From assembly GCA_012295275.1 (NCBI GenBank), contig CM022679.1, positions 29,512,001 through 29,576,000 on the forward strand: 64,000 nt of DNA, given 5' to 3'. Both the position numbers and the translations under genes were made by a program. Below, piece after piece: positions 287 through 22,716 of the stretch; position 1 is the stretch's first letter, and each line of letters opens with the position of its first letter. Source of the stretch: Chrysomallon squamiferum (lineage: Eukaryota; Animalia; Mollusca). A model generated the notes under the pieces. It saw nothing but the letters and a program-made list of their open reading frames with translations. It did not search any database and was not told the origin of the DNA.

Positions 287-3200
287 ATGATGCTTCTGAT
301 GTTGATGTTTCTACCGTTGTTTTTACTCGTGTCTGTTCTGGGATATTCTCTGCATCGAGAAAGGTAAGTTAATCGTAAATAGAAGACGTGAGCGTGTAAT
401 TGTACACATACACACACATACACTATATATGTGTCCGAGTGTGTGTATGTGTACACACACACATTCACACATGCATGAATTATATATATGTGTACGAGTG
501 TGAGTATAACTAGGTATCTATGTATGTATGGATGAAAGAGAGTGATTGCCTCAACTACTTTATATACTTTTCCCAAACCGCAAAAGAAAAAGTATTAGTG
601 TTAGGTAAATTCTTTCTTGGAAGAAAATAAGAAACATACTGTATGCTTCACTCTCTAAACACCAAACACAGCTGGTGTTGCTACCTGTTTAAAAAATATA
701 TACGTATTTTTAATATTTTTTAATATTTTTTTTTTTCGAGTCTTTACTGAGGTCTTGATCGTAGTTTAGGGGAAATTTTAGAAGGAAAGAAAGATAACTC
801 TGTCAGAACATTATTTTGCACCATCTTCTTCGCTCTGCATTATTATTATTATTGTTGTTGTCTAGATAAGTTCTCAGATTTTCGAGCTGTATAAGTAAAT
901 GTGTATGAATTCTGTACGAGATAGCTATTCAATTTTCATCTCGGTTTTACCTTTCTGAGGTGGCACACTCGCTATCTTTCGTTTGTTTGTTTTGTGTTGT
1001 TTTTTCTCTATAAACTGTTATTATTTTATGAGCTGACCAGAACGGATTTATACATTTGAATTTGTAGCAGTTATTTACCCGTTCCAGAAAATGATTTCCG
1101 ATTTGTTTATGATTTTATGTTAATGGGAAAGAGGATAATGTTAAGAGTATATGTATATATGTATGTACGTGTGTGTGTGTGTGTGTGTGTGTGTGTGTGT
1201 GTGTGTGTGTGTGTGTGTGTGTATTTGTGTGTATTTGTGTGAGAGTGTCATATATCTAAAACAAAAGAATGAAAAAAAAATCATGTTAAGATGAAGATAT
1301 TTCGTTTTATAATCTGATAACAGAAATAAGTGATTAAGATAAATAACTAAATAAATAAATAAATAAATAAATAAATAAATAAATAAATAAATAAAATCAG
1401 AATTGACAAAATAATGCAAATACAATTTACTTTCCAAGTTGATGTGAACGACTGCGCTTCACGACAATCCGACCTTCTGTATGATTCACATTTTTGTATG
1501 ATTCACACCACGTGTTTATCTCTAAACTTATCTGCTGATGACACCCGTAAAACCCGTAATACCTATTTTTAAAAACGGGTATTGATTTACCACAGTTTAA
1601 TAATCACAATACTCGGCAGACACCCTATACACTGTTTTTATATGTTTATTCACATCACGTATTTACCTGTACACTGTTTTTATATGTTTATTCACATCAC
1701 GTATTTACCTGTACACTGTTTTTATATGTTTATTCACATCACGTATTTACCTGTACACTGTTTTTATATGTTTATTCACATCACGTATTTACCTGTACAC
1801 TGTTTTTATATGTTTATTCACATCACGTATTTACCTGTACACTGTTTTTATATGTTTATTCACACCAAGTATTTACCTGTACACTGTTTTTATATGTTTA
1901 TTCACATCACGTATTTACCTGTACACTGTTTTTATATGTTTATTCACATCACGTATTTACCTGTACACTGTTTTTATATGTTTATTCACATCACGTATTT
2001 ACCTGTACACTGTTTTTATATGTTTATTCACACCAAGTATTTACCTGTACACTGTTTTTATATGTTTATTCACACCACGTATTCACTGTCTATTCATAAT
2101 CCCGATATAGCTCTATGATCAATGTCTATTTTTAGAAACGGGTATTACAGTCTTCAAATTTTAATAACTATATAGACAATATTCGGCAGAAACTAAATTC
2201 TTTGTCTTTAATTTTTCTAAAACTTCTTGTCGTTGTTGTTGTTGTTGTTGCTGTTGTTGTTGTTTTCATTTCTTTACTTGAGATTAGTAATTATTGTTTG
2301 ACTACTACCTTTATTTTAATTTATATTTAAAGCTGGGGATGTGAGGATGAGTGTGTATGTGTGTGTGTGTGTATTTGTGTGTGTGTGTGTGTGTGTGTGT
2401 GTGTGTGTGTGTGTGTGTGTGTGTGTGTGTGTGTGTGTCCTGCAGACTGTTTGTATAAGCTGTATACAAAATAAAATGGAGTTACAGTTTAAACGTAGGA
2501 CGTATTCTAACACTATATCCTATATTTCTTTGCTGGTTCATTAGTTGACTCTTCAGTCTACTGGTTGGTTGAAGAACTGATAAAGTTTCTTTTTTCGTTT
2601 CAGAAATTTTAGGTGCTTTAAAGACTTGTGCACGTATGATGAGCAGTTCTGCAACTGGCAAGAACAACGCTGTCAGAACTGTGAAGACTTTTCAGACTAC
2701 TGCGGAGAACGAGAACAGCCGCAGAACTGTTCAGTGTACTGTGGCCGTAAGTTCTTTCTGAAATAAATCTTCATTTTACCTTACAACGTTTTTGGTTGCT
2801 TTGTGTAGGTTTTTTTGTTTGTTTGTTTTTCGTTTACTATATAAATAAACTGAGAAACTGAACTGATTTGAAATTAATGAAATAAAGTGAATGACTGTCT
2901 AACTGAATTCATCTAAATGAAAAAACGAATAATATTACCACAACAACTACTACTACTACTACTACTACTACTACTACTACTACTACTACTACTACTACTG
3001 CCAGTACTTCTACTACTACTGCTACTTTTATTATTACTACTACTATTACCATTCCTACTACTACCATTACCACTACTACTGCTGCTGCTATTACTACTAC
3101 TATTAATATTTAATTATAATTGTTTATTATTATTATTTTTATTATTAATATTTTTATTATTATTATTATTATTATTATTATTATTATTATTATTATTATT

Positions 3201-6152
3201 ATTATTATTGTTATTATTATTATTATTATTTCCCAGATTTAAAAATATATTTCTATTTTCTAGAATTCTTGATTCAACAAACGTTGGATTCCTGCAGAGC
3301 TAACTGTTCAGGTGTGTACTTTAGAGTTCTTGACAAGCACGATTCAGTGAAACGTTTATTTTATTTTTATTTATTTTCACAGTAAAACGTTCAAACCATT
3401 TCTACCACTGCTGTTTTTCTAACCATTACAATGTTTGTTCTTTATTTTACTTTAAATCTTCACTTTAAGTTATCCTAAATCAGTTCATTGTTTTTGTATT
3501 TCAAATAACACAGTAACAACAACAACAACGATAACGACAACAATAACAATAATAATAATAATAATACAGATAACGATGATAATATTGAATTTATTGATGA
3601 AGATGATGATGATGATGATTGATGATTATTATGATGAAGAGCTGGATATGATGATGATAATGAATGAATGAATATGAAAATAATGAATGAATAAATAAAG
3701 AACAACATGACTAGATTTCTGTTAATTCTTTGAATAATTATAATTTTAAAAATCAATAACATTAATAACAGCATCAGTGACATCAATATAAAAGTATGAA
3801 TGAATGAATGTATGAATAAATGAATGACTGTATGAATGAATAAATAAATGTATGAATCAATGTATGAATAAATGAATAAATGAGAAGGGACCCTGAAATA
3901 CGCATTATCACTAATTTCATAATTATGAACTTTTAAACAGATATTTCATTTAAAATTTTAAAAACTATTCTATTTTTGCTTTTTTCTTAGAACAAACACC
4001 ACATCCAACGACATCGTCATCAACGTCAACAAAGACCGCAACGCCCACAACACCCACAAAAGGTATGTATCAATAATTTGTGCTTGTCTGTCTGTCTATC
4101 TATCTGTCTTTCTGTCTATCTATCTAAATGTCTGTCTGTCTGTCTATCTATTTATCTGTCTGTCTGTCTGTCTGTCTATCTATCTATCTATCTATCTGTC
4201 TTTCTGTCTGCCTATCTATCTATTTCTCAGCCTGTCAGTCAGTCTATCTATTTGTCTGTCTGTCTGTTTATCGACCAATCTATGTCTGTCTCTCTGTTTA
4301 TCCATTTGCATGTCTCTCTCTATCTGTCTATCTCTCTGCCTGTCTGTCTATCTGTCCGTCCGTCTGTGTGTCTGTCTCTCTATCTATCTTTCTTTCTATC
4401 TATCTATATATATGGGGTTTTTTGTCTGTCTATTATTTTATCTGCCTTCTGTCTTTCTCTCTATCAGTCTATATATCTGTCTGTCTGTCTGTCTGTCTGT
4501 CTATCTTTATTTCTGTGTATCTATCAATATATCTCTTTTATCTACTTATTTTTTTTTATTTACTTATTTAATAATTTATTTACAGTGTTCTTTTGACGAC
4601 TTACTATTATTATTATTATTTATAATTTTAATTATTGTCAGTTAATCACATAATACTTTTAATTTATATATAAATTAATTTATTAATTTACTTACTGATA
4701 TTTGTGGATTACCCTTCTTTCAGATATTAAAAAAAAAAATAAAAAAAAAAATAAAAAAATAATAATAATAATAATAATAATAATAAATAAATAAATAAAT
4801 AAAAATACAAATCTAACAATACAATGATTATTTAATACGTACTGTTAAAATGTGATGAAATATCATTACAGAAATAATTAAATTATTTATTTATATCCTC
4901 TAATGGATCTAAATTGAAGACTTTGCTTTATTCTCAGATATTTTCACAGAACGCACCGAAGAACATGTCGAAGATAACCAGCTTCTCATAGGCATAGTCA
5001 CAGTCATTGGCGTAACCTCCTTCATAGGTGTCAGTTTTCTGCTGTGCTATCTCTTCAAGAGGAGATTCCCGGATATGCTGAAAAACGACAAAACTACAAA
5101 TTCAAGAAAAAACCGCGAAGAAACAGTTCCCCTTCAAAGTGAGTTAATGTATTATCATTTATTTGTTTATTTATTTATTTACTTATTTATTTATTTGTCT
5201 CTTTGTTTGTTTGTTTGTTTGTTTATTTATTTACTTATTTACTTATTTATTTATTTACTTACTTACTTACTTATTTATTTATTTATTTATTTATTTATTT
5301 AATTATTTATTAATTTGTCTCTTTCTTTCTTTGTTTATTATTTCATTTTATTTGTTAGATTGTTTATTTATTTGCTTGGTTATTTGTTTATTTATTTATT
5401 TGTTTCCTTATTTATTTATTTATTTATTTATTTGTATATAAGTATTATTATTATTATTATTATTATTATTATTATTATTATTATTATTTAAATAAAAATA
5501 AAATTATTTAAAGAATGTTGTGTGGGTTTTGTGTACTTATTTTATCTCACTTCTATGAGAGATACACTGACACTGAGTATTCACTCGTACGTGTGTATTG
5601 TTTGTATATAAAGCACGTGTACACAAACACACATCCGCACACAAACAATTCACCAACACGACAAAGTAACTCGTCATCATTCCCGCATTAATCATGTGTC
5701 TATTTATGTTTTAATCCTGTGTATATTTATGTTTTGTGTATGTAGGTTGTATGTAGGTGTGTATGTAGGTGTGTATGTAGGTGTATCTGTACACACACAA
5801 AAACAGAGACGAACACCAGACGAACACCAGACACACATAAAAAACACGTGCAGAAAAAAAGAAAAAAAAATGACCCTTCGTATTTAATATGGCTTGAAAA
5901 TGCAGTATACTTATATATATCTATGTCTATATCTATATCTATGTTAGAAAAAAGTCAGTGTTAATTTACAAATTTACAGATAAAGGACCAGACAACGGGA
6001 ATAAGGAAACTGTGGAGCCCAAACGTGCAGTCCGTGAAACTGAAAGTTCTGAACGAGCGACTGAACGAGAAGAAAATCTACATCGAAACGACCCCTGGAA
6101 AGGTGTTAGCCCGACCAGCCCTGCCGGAAAATCTGTTCTCCTTCTAAGTTAA
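287..6152 (+). CDS. Single-CRD TNFR-like (Grindelwald/TACI-type) type-I membrane receptor, array copy 1, 237 aa
   Basis: Six in-phase GT-AG exons totalling 714 nt. 287-363 signal peptide MMLLMLMFLPLFLLVSVLG; 2604-2746 CFKDLCTYDEQFCNWQEQRCQNCEDFSDYCGEREQPQNCSVYC; 3264-3311 FLIQQTLDSCRANCS; 3991-4062 Thr/Ser/Pro stalk; 4938-5138 TM LLIGIVTVIGVTSFIGVSFLLCYLF then KRR (alternative in-frame acceptor at 4950); 5980-6152 tail and TAA. Family call from Cys spacing. Confidence 0.85.
1628..2082. repeat. 42-bp minisatellite, ~11 copies, in copy-1 intron 1
   Basis: Unit GTACACTGTTTTTATATGTTTATTCACATCACGTATTTACCT, seen as the 14-aa repeat in ORF 1582..2118. Confidence 0.95.
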
Positions 6153-22600: not shown

Positions 22601-22716
22601 ACAACGGCAATGAGGAACACGAACCTGTACAAGAACAAAACATAAATCAAAACAAACCGTGGAAAGGTGTCATCCCGACCAGTGAAGACACTGACTACAA
22701 TCTTGTTGCAGGTTAA
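19674..22716 (+). CDS. Receptor array copy 4, alternative first exon, 208 aa
   Basis: In-phase exons totalling 627 nt. 19674-19753 MNSKVLLLLSCLTRISTLPAFFNGEK with phase-2 donor AG|GTAGGT; 20470-20612 CRD; 20825-20860; 21102-21155 Thr stalk; 21854-22039 TM FIGIAVGIVLTVPIFLLCNIFV; 22589-22716 tail with PVQE and TDYNLV, TAA. Confidence 0.75.
19962..20115. repeat. ~56-bp tandem repeat x3
   Basis: AAATTCTGGG.TTTTCCAAA.CAGT occurs three times. Confidence 0.8.

Follow-up and report, generated by a model that had tools for sequence, protein, structure and literature searches.

The 64,000-nucleotide stretch of the Chrysomallon squamiferum genome analyzed here (assembly GCA_012295275.1, contig CM022679.1, positions 29,512,001 to 29,576,000; hereafter the window) contains a tandem array of four neighboring paralogous genes, all on the + strand, that spans positions 287-22716. 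These genes are a real, transcribed receptor array without database match. Judging from the register of its cysteines, their cysteine-rich outer domain probably represents a variant of the module that characterizes tumor necrosis factor (TNF) receptors of the Grindelwald type. The interpretation favored here, with confidence somewhat above even, is that the proteins are Grindelwald-like receptors which would bind TNF trimers through a hairpin, with a ligand preference particular to each copy, and would signal by short tail motifs. What is new is that one cysteine is shifted and others are optional, that the genes are mosaics and that the cysteine exon has diverged more than nearby introns in most pairs of copies.

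The exons encoding the eight-cysteine domain start at positions 2604, 9640, 15324 and 20470. When all six frames of the window were scanned for a loose cysteine pattern, these four domains and one (TG)n artefact were recovered, which confirmed the four paralogues with the spacing C-x4-C-x6-C-x6-C-x2-C-x6-C-x8-C-x3-C described in the initial annotation. The eight cysteines are invariant across the copies and the exon is 60-88% identical in pairwise comparisons. Gene models were assembled by coordinate from splice sites inspected at every exon. As had been claimed, each model combines a hydrophobic N-terminus and one transmembrane (TM) segment in a type I layout; the N-termini were judged by hydropathy, not by a signal-peptide predictor, and the first exon of gene 4 is doubtful. 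Two further statements held in part: exon phases 2,1,1,1,1 occur in genes 1 and 4 and not in genes 2 and 3, and an ectodomain with eight cysteines is encoded by all four copies of exon 2, but exon 3 of genes 1-3 adds a C-x3-C pair that had been missed. Because of this pair the ectodomains of genes 1-3 carry 10 cysteines, not 8. A stalk exon was found by BLASTN in genes 1 and 4 only, genes 2 and 3 having none. The exons are listed below; X3 and X4 denote coded RNA runs, whose contigs are cited by record number.

287..363, + strand: gene 1 exon 1, signal-peptide-like, phase 2 (ATG, hydrophobic core, GT donor)
2604..2746, + strand: gene 1 exon 2, eight-cysteine domain (gene-1-type spliced RNA contig X4 record 12)
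3264..3311, + strand: gene 1 exon 3, extra C-x3-C and second N-glycan sequon (gene-1-type exon 3 in X4 record 12)
3991..4062, + strand: gene 1 exon 4, Thr/Ser/Pro stalk (X4 record 12 continues at its loose end into the first stalk-exon bases)
4950..5138, + strand: gene 1 exon 5, TM and proximal tail (model; alternative in-frame acceptor 4938)
5980..6152, + strand: gene 1 exon 6, distal tail to stop (model)
8837..8919, + strand: gene 2 exon 1, signal-peptide-like (80% identical to gene 1 exon 1)
9640..9782, + strand: gene 2 exon 2, eight-cysteine domain (cysteine pattern, alignment)
10078..10125, + strand: gene 2 exon 3, extra C-x3-C (model)
10915..11063, + strand: gene 2 TM exon, frameshifted, about 22 tail residues and then a stop (product of 116-140 residues)
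12021..12133, + strand: gene 2 orphaned last exon, beyond the stop (98% identical to that of gene 4)
14011..14084, + strand: gene 3 exon 1, signal-peptide-like (model)
15324..15466, + strand: gene 3 exon 2, the most diverged eight-cysteine domain (cysteine pattern, alignment)
15825..15872, + strand: gene 3 exon 3, extra C-x3-C (model)
16873..17058, + strand: gene 3 TM exon with a Gly/Thr/Ile repeat linker and no preceding stalk exon (model)
17709..17866, + strand: gene 3 last exon (model)
19412..19431, + strand: gene 4 remnant of the ancestral first exon, 6 codons and then broken (upstream flank 95% identical to that of gene 3)
19674..19753, + strand: gene 4 candidate substitute first exon, uncertain (ATG, phase-2 GT donor)
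20470..20612, + strand: gene 4 exon 2, eight-cysteine domain (donor 20612 used by paralogous-type RNA contigs)
20825..20860, + strand: gene 4 exon 3, 12 nucleotides shorter in frame, both extra cysteines gone (short form in X4 record 11)
21102..21155, + strand: gene 4 stalk exon (GT..AG joint 20860-21102 in X4 record 11)
21854..22039, + strand: gene 4 TM exon (model)
22589..22716, + strand: gene 4 last exon with a PVQE motif (model, 208 residues)

Gene 1 has six exons with phases 2,1,1,1,1 and a product of 233 or 237 residues, and gene 3 has five exons with phases 2,1,1,1 and a product of 202 residues. Gene 4 has six exons with phases 2,1,1,1,1 only if 19674-19753 serves as its first exon, which is a guess: this candidate is preceded by five upstream ATGs, gives the lowest N-terminal 19-residue hydropathy of the four and has no second copy in the window. 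At about 14900-15040 (+), in intron 1 of gene 3, a single-copy open frame ends at a strong GT donor and is a possible stray exon. A soluble form produced by a conserved AG about 70 bases past exon 3, as an alternative last exon, was considered and dropped as unsupported.

Transcription was assessed by comparing four coded runs with positions 20400-21200 (801 bases) at 80% likeness, a segment that covers the joints between exons 2 and 3 and exons 3 and 4. Four RNA contigs, all from one study, were placed, and three of them are spliced, so that the spliced transcripts on which the initial annotation had staked its models do exist. The junction mapping envisaged for all four models was achieved for the two joints within this segment, both of which lie at the modeled GT..AG sites. 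X3 record 10 and X4 record 12 contain the joint 20612-20825; X4 record 11 has it with two altered bases and carries the 20860-21102 joint as well. Run X1 gave 28 contigs, all without a joint; they span exon-intron borders as DNA would. Contig depth was not taken as copy number. By its diagnostic bases X4 record 12 is of the gene 1 type. In X3 record 10 a gene-2/3-type exon 3 is spliced to an apparent stalk exon, and this contig may be merely an allele of gene 1 since the candidate exon 3 types differ by one base. X2 record 9 is gene-2-like and unspliced. X4 record 11 does not correspond to any gene of the array: over 20537-20610 it has 10 differences from gene 4, from which genes 1, 2 and 3 differ there by 4, 3 and 16, and its hairpin is nearest to that of gene 3, yet 6 of 30 bases and 5 of 10 residues differ. 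It joins a gene 4-like short exon 3 to a doubled stalk that continues into the intron; being a single low-depth contig, it could represent a fifth paralogue, a far allele or a chimera. The eight-cysteine form with short exon 3 is transcribed, so the eight-cysteine core can stand alone at the RNA level.

In Drosophila Grindelwald the X2 module comprises residues 35-54, with Phe46 and Tyr48 to Arg53, and the C2 module has the spacing Cys57-x3-Cys61-x11-Cys73-x3-Cys77 (PMC8024323, cited here from part of its text); the positions of Cys35, 40, 47 and 54 were taken from the primer table of that paper. The Grindelwald-type fold is a beta-hairpin with two antiparallel helices after it and four disulfides, and receptors of this type bind a TNF/Eiger trimer in a 3:3 complex. 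A test of cysteine register was chosen because queries of 47-48 residues from close copies are insensitive and the Pfam TNFR model misses Grindelwald itself. At an ungapped shift of +30, seven of the eight Grindelwald cysteines (35, 40, 47, 54, 57, 73 and 77) are matched in all four copies, as is Phe46, and Arg53 is matched in three. The X2 spacing C35-x4-C40-x6-C47-x6-C54 with the core Phe46 is present in every copy. At least seven cysteine matches were obtained in none of 300,000 random placements and in 6 of 840 permutations of the domain's own spacings, in a test with one pre-chosen target and no library-wide correction, real cysteine spacings being non-uniform, which counts against a strict reading of these figures.

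Several other points weigh against a Grindelwald assignment. The sixth cysteine lies at 64, three residues later than Cys61 of Grindelwald, so the CXXCXXXC signature and the C2 spacing directly after X2 are absent. As CXXCXXXC is the defining signature of grnd-like receptors (bioRxiv 10.1101/2024.07.27.603686, likewise cited from part of its text), the array is classed as a variant of the Grindelwald type, not as a member. Neither Thr51 nor the His66-Asn67 patch of Grindelwald is kept, and outside the cysteines the identity among compared positions consists of Phe46 and Arg53. In genes 1-3 the exact C2 spacing occurs elsewhere, as C7-x3-C8-x11-C9-x3-C10 across exons 2 and 3, and the 10-cysteine and 8-cysteine forms may therefore pair their disulfides differently; alternatively, C9 and C10 may link two chains. 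The low-confidence AlphaFold models add that the second helix is absent from both and that the top structural match of the second is unrelated (Z 3.8).

These same features (the missing CxxCxxxC spacing, the 10 cysteines of three of the four genes, which permit other pairings, and the scarce identity outside the cysteines) would be expected of an unrelated or convergent cysteine-rich membrane family with another fold, its match to Grindelwald being due to chance. That explanation is considered improbable, as the two domains agree without gaps in seven cysteines, in the core Phe and in their span, the eight-cysteine form is found in RNA and failure of the Pfam TNFR model is shared by true Grindelwald. 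The likeness to Grindelwald proposed initially is retained for the cysteines, Phe46 and Arg53 in register, in the absence of the signature and of any database or fold match. The accompanying likeness to TACI and BCMA is the weaker of the two: a D-x-L motif at the hairpin tip marks TACI, BCMA and BAFF-R in the part of PMC8024323 covered, and it is absent from columns 18-23 in all four copies.

Homology searches were carried out with the 47-48-residue cysteine exon of the four close copies. No match at E<=0.001 was obtained by HMMER among 1.84 billion representatives, and a word-index search with the exon alignment gave two candidates, none at E<=10. PDB sequence searches returned no relative (two unrelated rows, E 1.1 and 1.7) and neither did the ESM Atlas search. 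The four exons have no Pfam match, PF00020 (TNFR_c6) included, a model that also fails on true Grindelwald. Metagenome and viral contigs gave 192 and 34 pattern matches, none of which was confirmed. The structural check that had been suggested, AlphaFold plus Foldseek, was run on the exon alone and yielded two models with pLDDT of 44 and 50, for which no meaningful structural match was obtained: at E<=10 Foldseek returned no row for one model and one row for the other, and VIA-align gave best Z values of 2.3 and 3.8 to unrelated chains, Grindelwald not being among the matches listed (1 of 1, and the best 50 of 303). The better model, at its low confidence, has strands at 3-10 and 17-24 and a helix at 27-33, the strand-strand-helix order of Grindelwald. 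No title or abstract describing the array was found in a literature search that covers subscription journals thinly.

The cysteine domain was shown to be under purifying selection. Across the six pairs its exon has a ratio of replacement to silent divergence (dN/dS) of 0.27-0.41, which lies below 1 with one-sided p<0.05 in five of them (uncorrected, and the paralogue pairs are non-independent, which weakens the result). The 143-base exon was also compared with fixed intron windows of 125 bases beside exon 3, and this comparison was relied on since local alignment of flanks favors similar stretches. The exon is significantly more diverged than the introns in four of the six pairs (36/143 versus 2/125 differences for genes 1/3, and 19/143 versus 3/125 for genes 1/2); pairs 1/4 and 2/4 have no exon excess, which speaks against a general trend. 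In intron 2, 20 of 155 aligned bases differ between genes 1 and 3. Silent divergence of the exon is high, with dS up to 0.84, and the simplest reading is therefore that old exon variants were kept while their flanks were homogenized, rather than rapid positive selection. Hairpin columns 18-23, the equivalents of the first Eiger-binding patch of Grindelwald (residues 48-53 in the covered part of PMC8024323), hold 8 of the 26 extra residue states (p=0.015), columns that were set from the paper after the alignment had been seen, a further reservation.

Such divergence could also be produced by a Grindelwald-derived domain that now recognizes a non-TNF target of microbial, viral or allogeneic origin, the target itself driving the change. 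The excess of exon over intron divergence, the fifth hairpin variant in RNA and the missing match among the 1.84 billion representatives are consistent with it, the latter although a formin exon nearby shares 83% identity with a Gigantopelta aegis protein, a contrast that points to rapid evolution or to gaps in annotation. This is regarded as rather unlikely, in view of a dN/dS below 1 in all pairs, of the high dS, for which old divergence plus intron conversion suffice without positive selection, and of the many TNF ligands of molluscs (up to 27 in one species; bioRxiv 10.1101/2024.07.27.603686, in the part covered), which alone could favor distinct receptors.

The closest partner of each gene shifts along its length: genes 3/4 in the 5' flank (95%), 1/2 at the end of intron 1 (100%), 1/4 in the cysteine exon (92%), 1/2 and 2/3 in exon 3 (98%), 3/4 in the TM exon (83%) and 2/4 in the last exon (98%). 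These segment-wise identities agree with the RNA variants and bear out the earlier proposal that the modules vary independently. The genes are mosaics, of the kind that unequal crossing-over and conversion would give. An intergenic block occurs in copies 90-94% identical at 13434-13691 (before gene 3), 18895-19142 (before gene 4) and 24129-24394 (after gene 4), and likely marks a crossover boundary; the array may extend to the left of window base 1. The DNA of the window is AT-rich and has numerous microsatellites. One minisatellite lies at 1624-2083 in intron 1 of gene 1 (42-base unit, 11 copies, 98% matches) and another at 25420-26096 (26-base unit, 27 copies). Decayed, related transposon-like segments, which we take to be Tigger-like, are located after genes 2 and 4 and inside the last intron of gene 2 (about 11270-11630, 12710-13380 and 23440-24080), and gave no match in Pfam.

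The tails comprise about 22-90 residues. No death domain was detected when Pfam was scanned separately with the tail exons of genes 1, 3 and 4 and the TM exons of genes 1-4, in line with the initial annotation. The tails of Grindelwald-type receptors bind TRAF2/6 and Veli/Lin7. The tails of the array were also inspected with the generally known TRAF consensus motifs: a TRAF2-type PVQE motif is found in gene 4 only (one of four tails, chance 0.26), which detracts from signaling by tail motifs as a shared property, and the TRAF6 consensus is found in no tail.

In gene 2 the acceptor of the TM exon has changed from AG to AT (10901-10902) and the donor from GT to AT (11084-11085), at the sites homologous to those of the paralogues. 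All seven candidate acceptors give one frame, in which the stop (11061-11063) lies beyond a complete TM segment. The cysteine exon has private changes, three silent and four replacement, and keeps every cysteine. Since the domain is intact and the stop lies past the TM segment, gene 2 could encode a tailless membrane-anchored decoy; its three separate lesions fit decay equally well, and the two are about equally likely. A full paired signaling and decoy system, as first suggested for the array, is a doubtful candidate.

Part of this evidence is also compatible with simple birth and death of gene copies, in which one or two receptors (genes 1 and 3) work, genes 2 and 4 decay, and there is neither decoy design nor selection for difference. 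The lesions of gene 2, the broken first exon of gene 4 behind its five upstream ATGs, the unspliced state of the sole gene-2-like RNA contig (X2 record 9) and the transposon remnants and duplicated intergenic blocks around the copies all fit this process. It is judged quite improbable as a full account, considering that gene 2 has the cysteines and private changes just described and a stop past its complete TM segment whichever acceptor is used, and that the deletion in exon 3 of gene 4 is in frame and the short form is found in RNA. Birth and death is moreover compatible with Grindelwald ancestry and contests the system-level interpretation only.

For the Grindelwald-like receptor interpretation, the following mechanism can be proposed. 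The array would encode four single-pass membrane proteins with a Grindelwald-type outer module; by virtue of this module they would bind trimeric TNF-family ligands via a disulfide-pinned hairpin. The module would consist of an X2 hairpin and a helical part, with ligand contact at hairpin residues 18-23, and signaling would proceed through adaptors on short tail motifs instead of a death domain. Unequal crossing-over and gene conversion would swap or drop the first exon, the exon 3 cysteine pair, the stalk and the tail, distinct binding exons being retained during this exchange. Gene 2, if translated, would act as a tailless ligand sink, decay being about as likely. A more far-reaching proposal, considered unlikely, is that of a recombining, polymorphic, immune-type gastropod locus built on the Grindelwald module, in which gene conversion makes introns uniform while selection keeps the binding exons different, one small exon shifts the ectodomain between 8- and 10-cysteine disulfide maps, stalks and tails are swapped and a tailless decoy is included, such that receptor sets would differ per individual and be tuned to expanded TNF ligands or microbial mimics.

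Other genes of the window lie beyond the array. A formin gene with FH3 and FH2 domains extends over 34449-47556 (+) and was traced by 17 tblastn pieces 47-86% identical to a Gigantopelta aegis protein; the exon mentioned above was the sole match among 34 candidates. A tRNA-Ile(TAT) with a 36-base intron lies on the - strand at 42728-42837, inside a formin intron and opposite to it, and was detected by ARAGORN with introns on and missed with introns off. At about 50374-54482 (+) a ubiquitin-conjugating enzyme gene, presumably UBE2D/Ubc4-like, was read by eye, its exon ends being partly fixed. A first coding exon with signal-peptide-like sequence and a GT donor is located at about 60974-61032 (+), in a gene that continues beyond the traced part.

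Receptors of the Grindelwald type are difficult to recognize, and nearly all experimental work on them has been done in flies. A transcribed family in which one cysteine is displaced and a cysteine pair is optional would widen the known range of this fold and would indicate that surveys based on the signature overlook members. Exon divergence exceeding that of introns, together with module swapping, offers a compact test case of how a TNF receptor of an invertebrate may diversify its output and its choice of ligands; should the proteins turn out not to bind TNF, they constitute a fast-evolving surface receptor family without match in the searched databases.

Among vertebrates, the TRAIL receptor cluster with DcR1 and DcR2, and mouse Tnfrsf22 and Tnfrsf23, are likewise tandem TNF-receptor paralogues, some of them with cut tails. 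These vertebrate receptors have several classical cysteine-rich domains (CRDs), death-domain partners and a demonstrated decoy role, whereas the decoy idea for the array is a guess from one truncated copy. Human BCMA, TACI, BAFF-R and Fn14 have six or fewer cysteines versus the eight or ten of the array, BCMA and TACI lack a signal peptide, and the spacing of BCMA resembles the C-x8-C-x3-C end of the array. These human receptors (TACI by its CRD2) are similar to the array in having a single small CRD made of a hairpin and a helical module (PMC8024323, part covered); the D-x-L hairpin motif is proper to the BCMA, TACI and BAFF-R subgroup and occurs in none of the four copies.

Closer in lineage, 115 grnd homologues have been reported in 148 proteomes, 12 of them in one annelid, Capitella teleta, and some in oyster and scallop (bioRxiv 10.1101/2024.07.27.603686, part covered), so an expansion of grnd-like receptors alone is not new. 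The array shares with these lophotrochozoan homologues the lineage-specific expansion, the single CRD and the occurrence outside arthropods, and differs in lacking the CXXCXXXC by which they are defined; exon shuffling, a cut copy and exon-over-intron divergence are features of the array that are not reported for them in the parts of that preprint covered. With Drosophila Grindelwald (PDB 6ZSY/6ZSZ/6ZT0; PMC8024323, part covered) the array has in common a signal peptide, one eight-cysteine domain, a TM segment and a tail without detected death domain. The array has C-x2-C-x6-C-x8-C where Grindelwald has C-x2-C-x3-C-x11-C, carries an extra C-x3-C exon in three genes, does not keep the Thr51 and His66/Asn67 contacts, and places its sequon next to the seventh cysteine instead of at 63; it is a four-copy mosaic, whereas Grindelwald is one gene.

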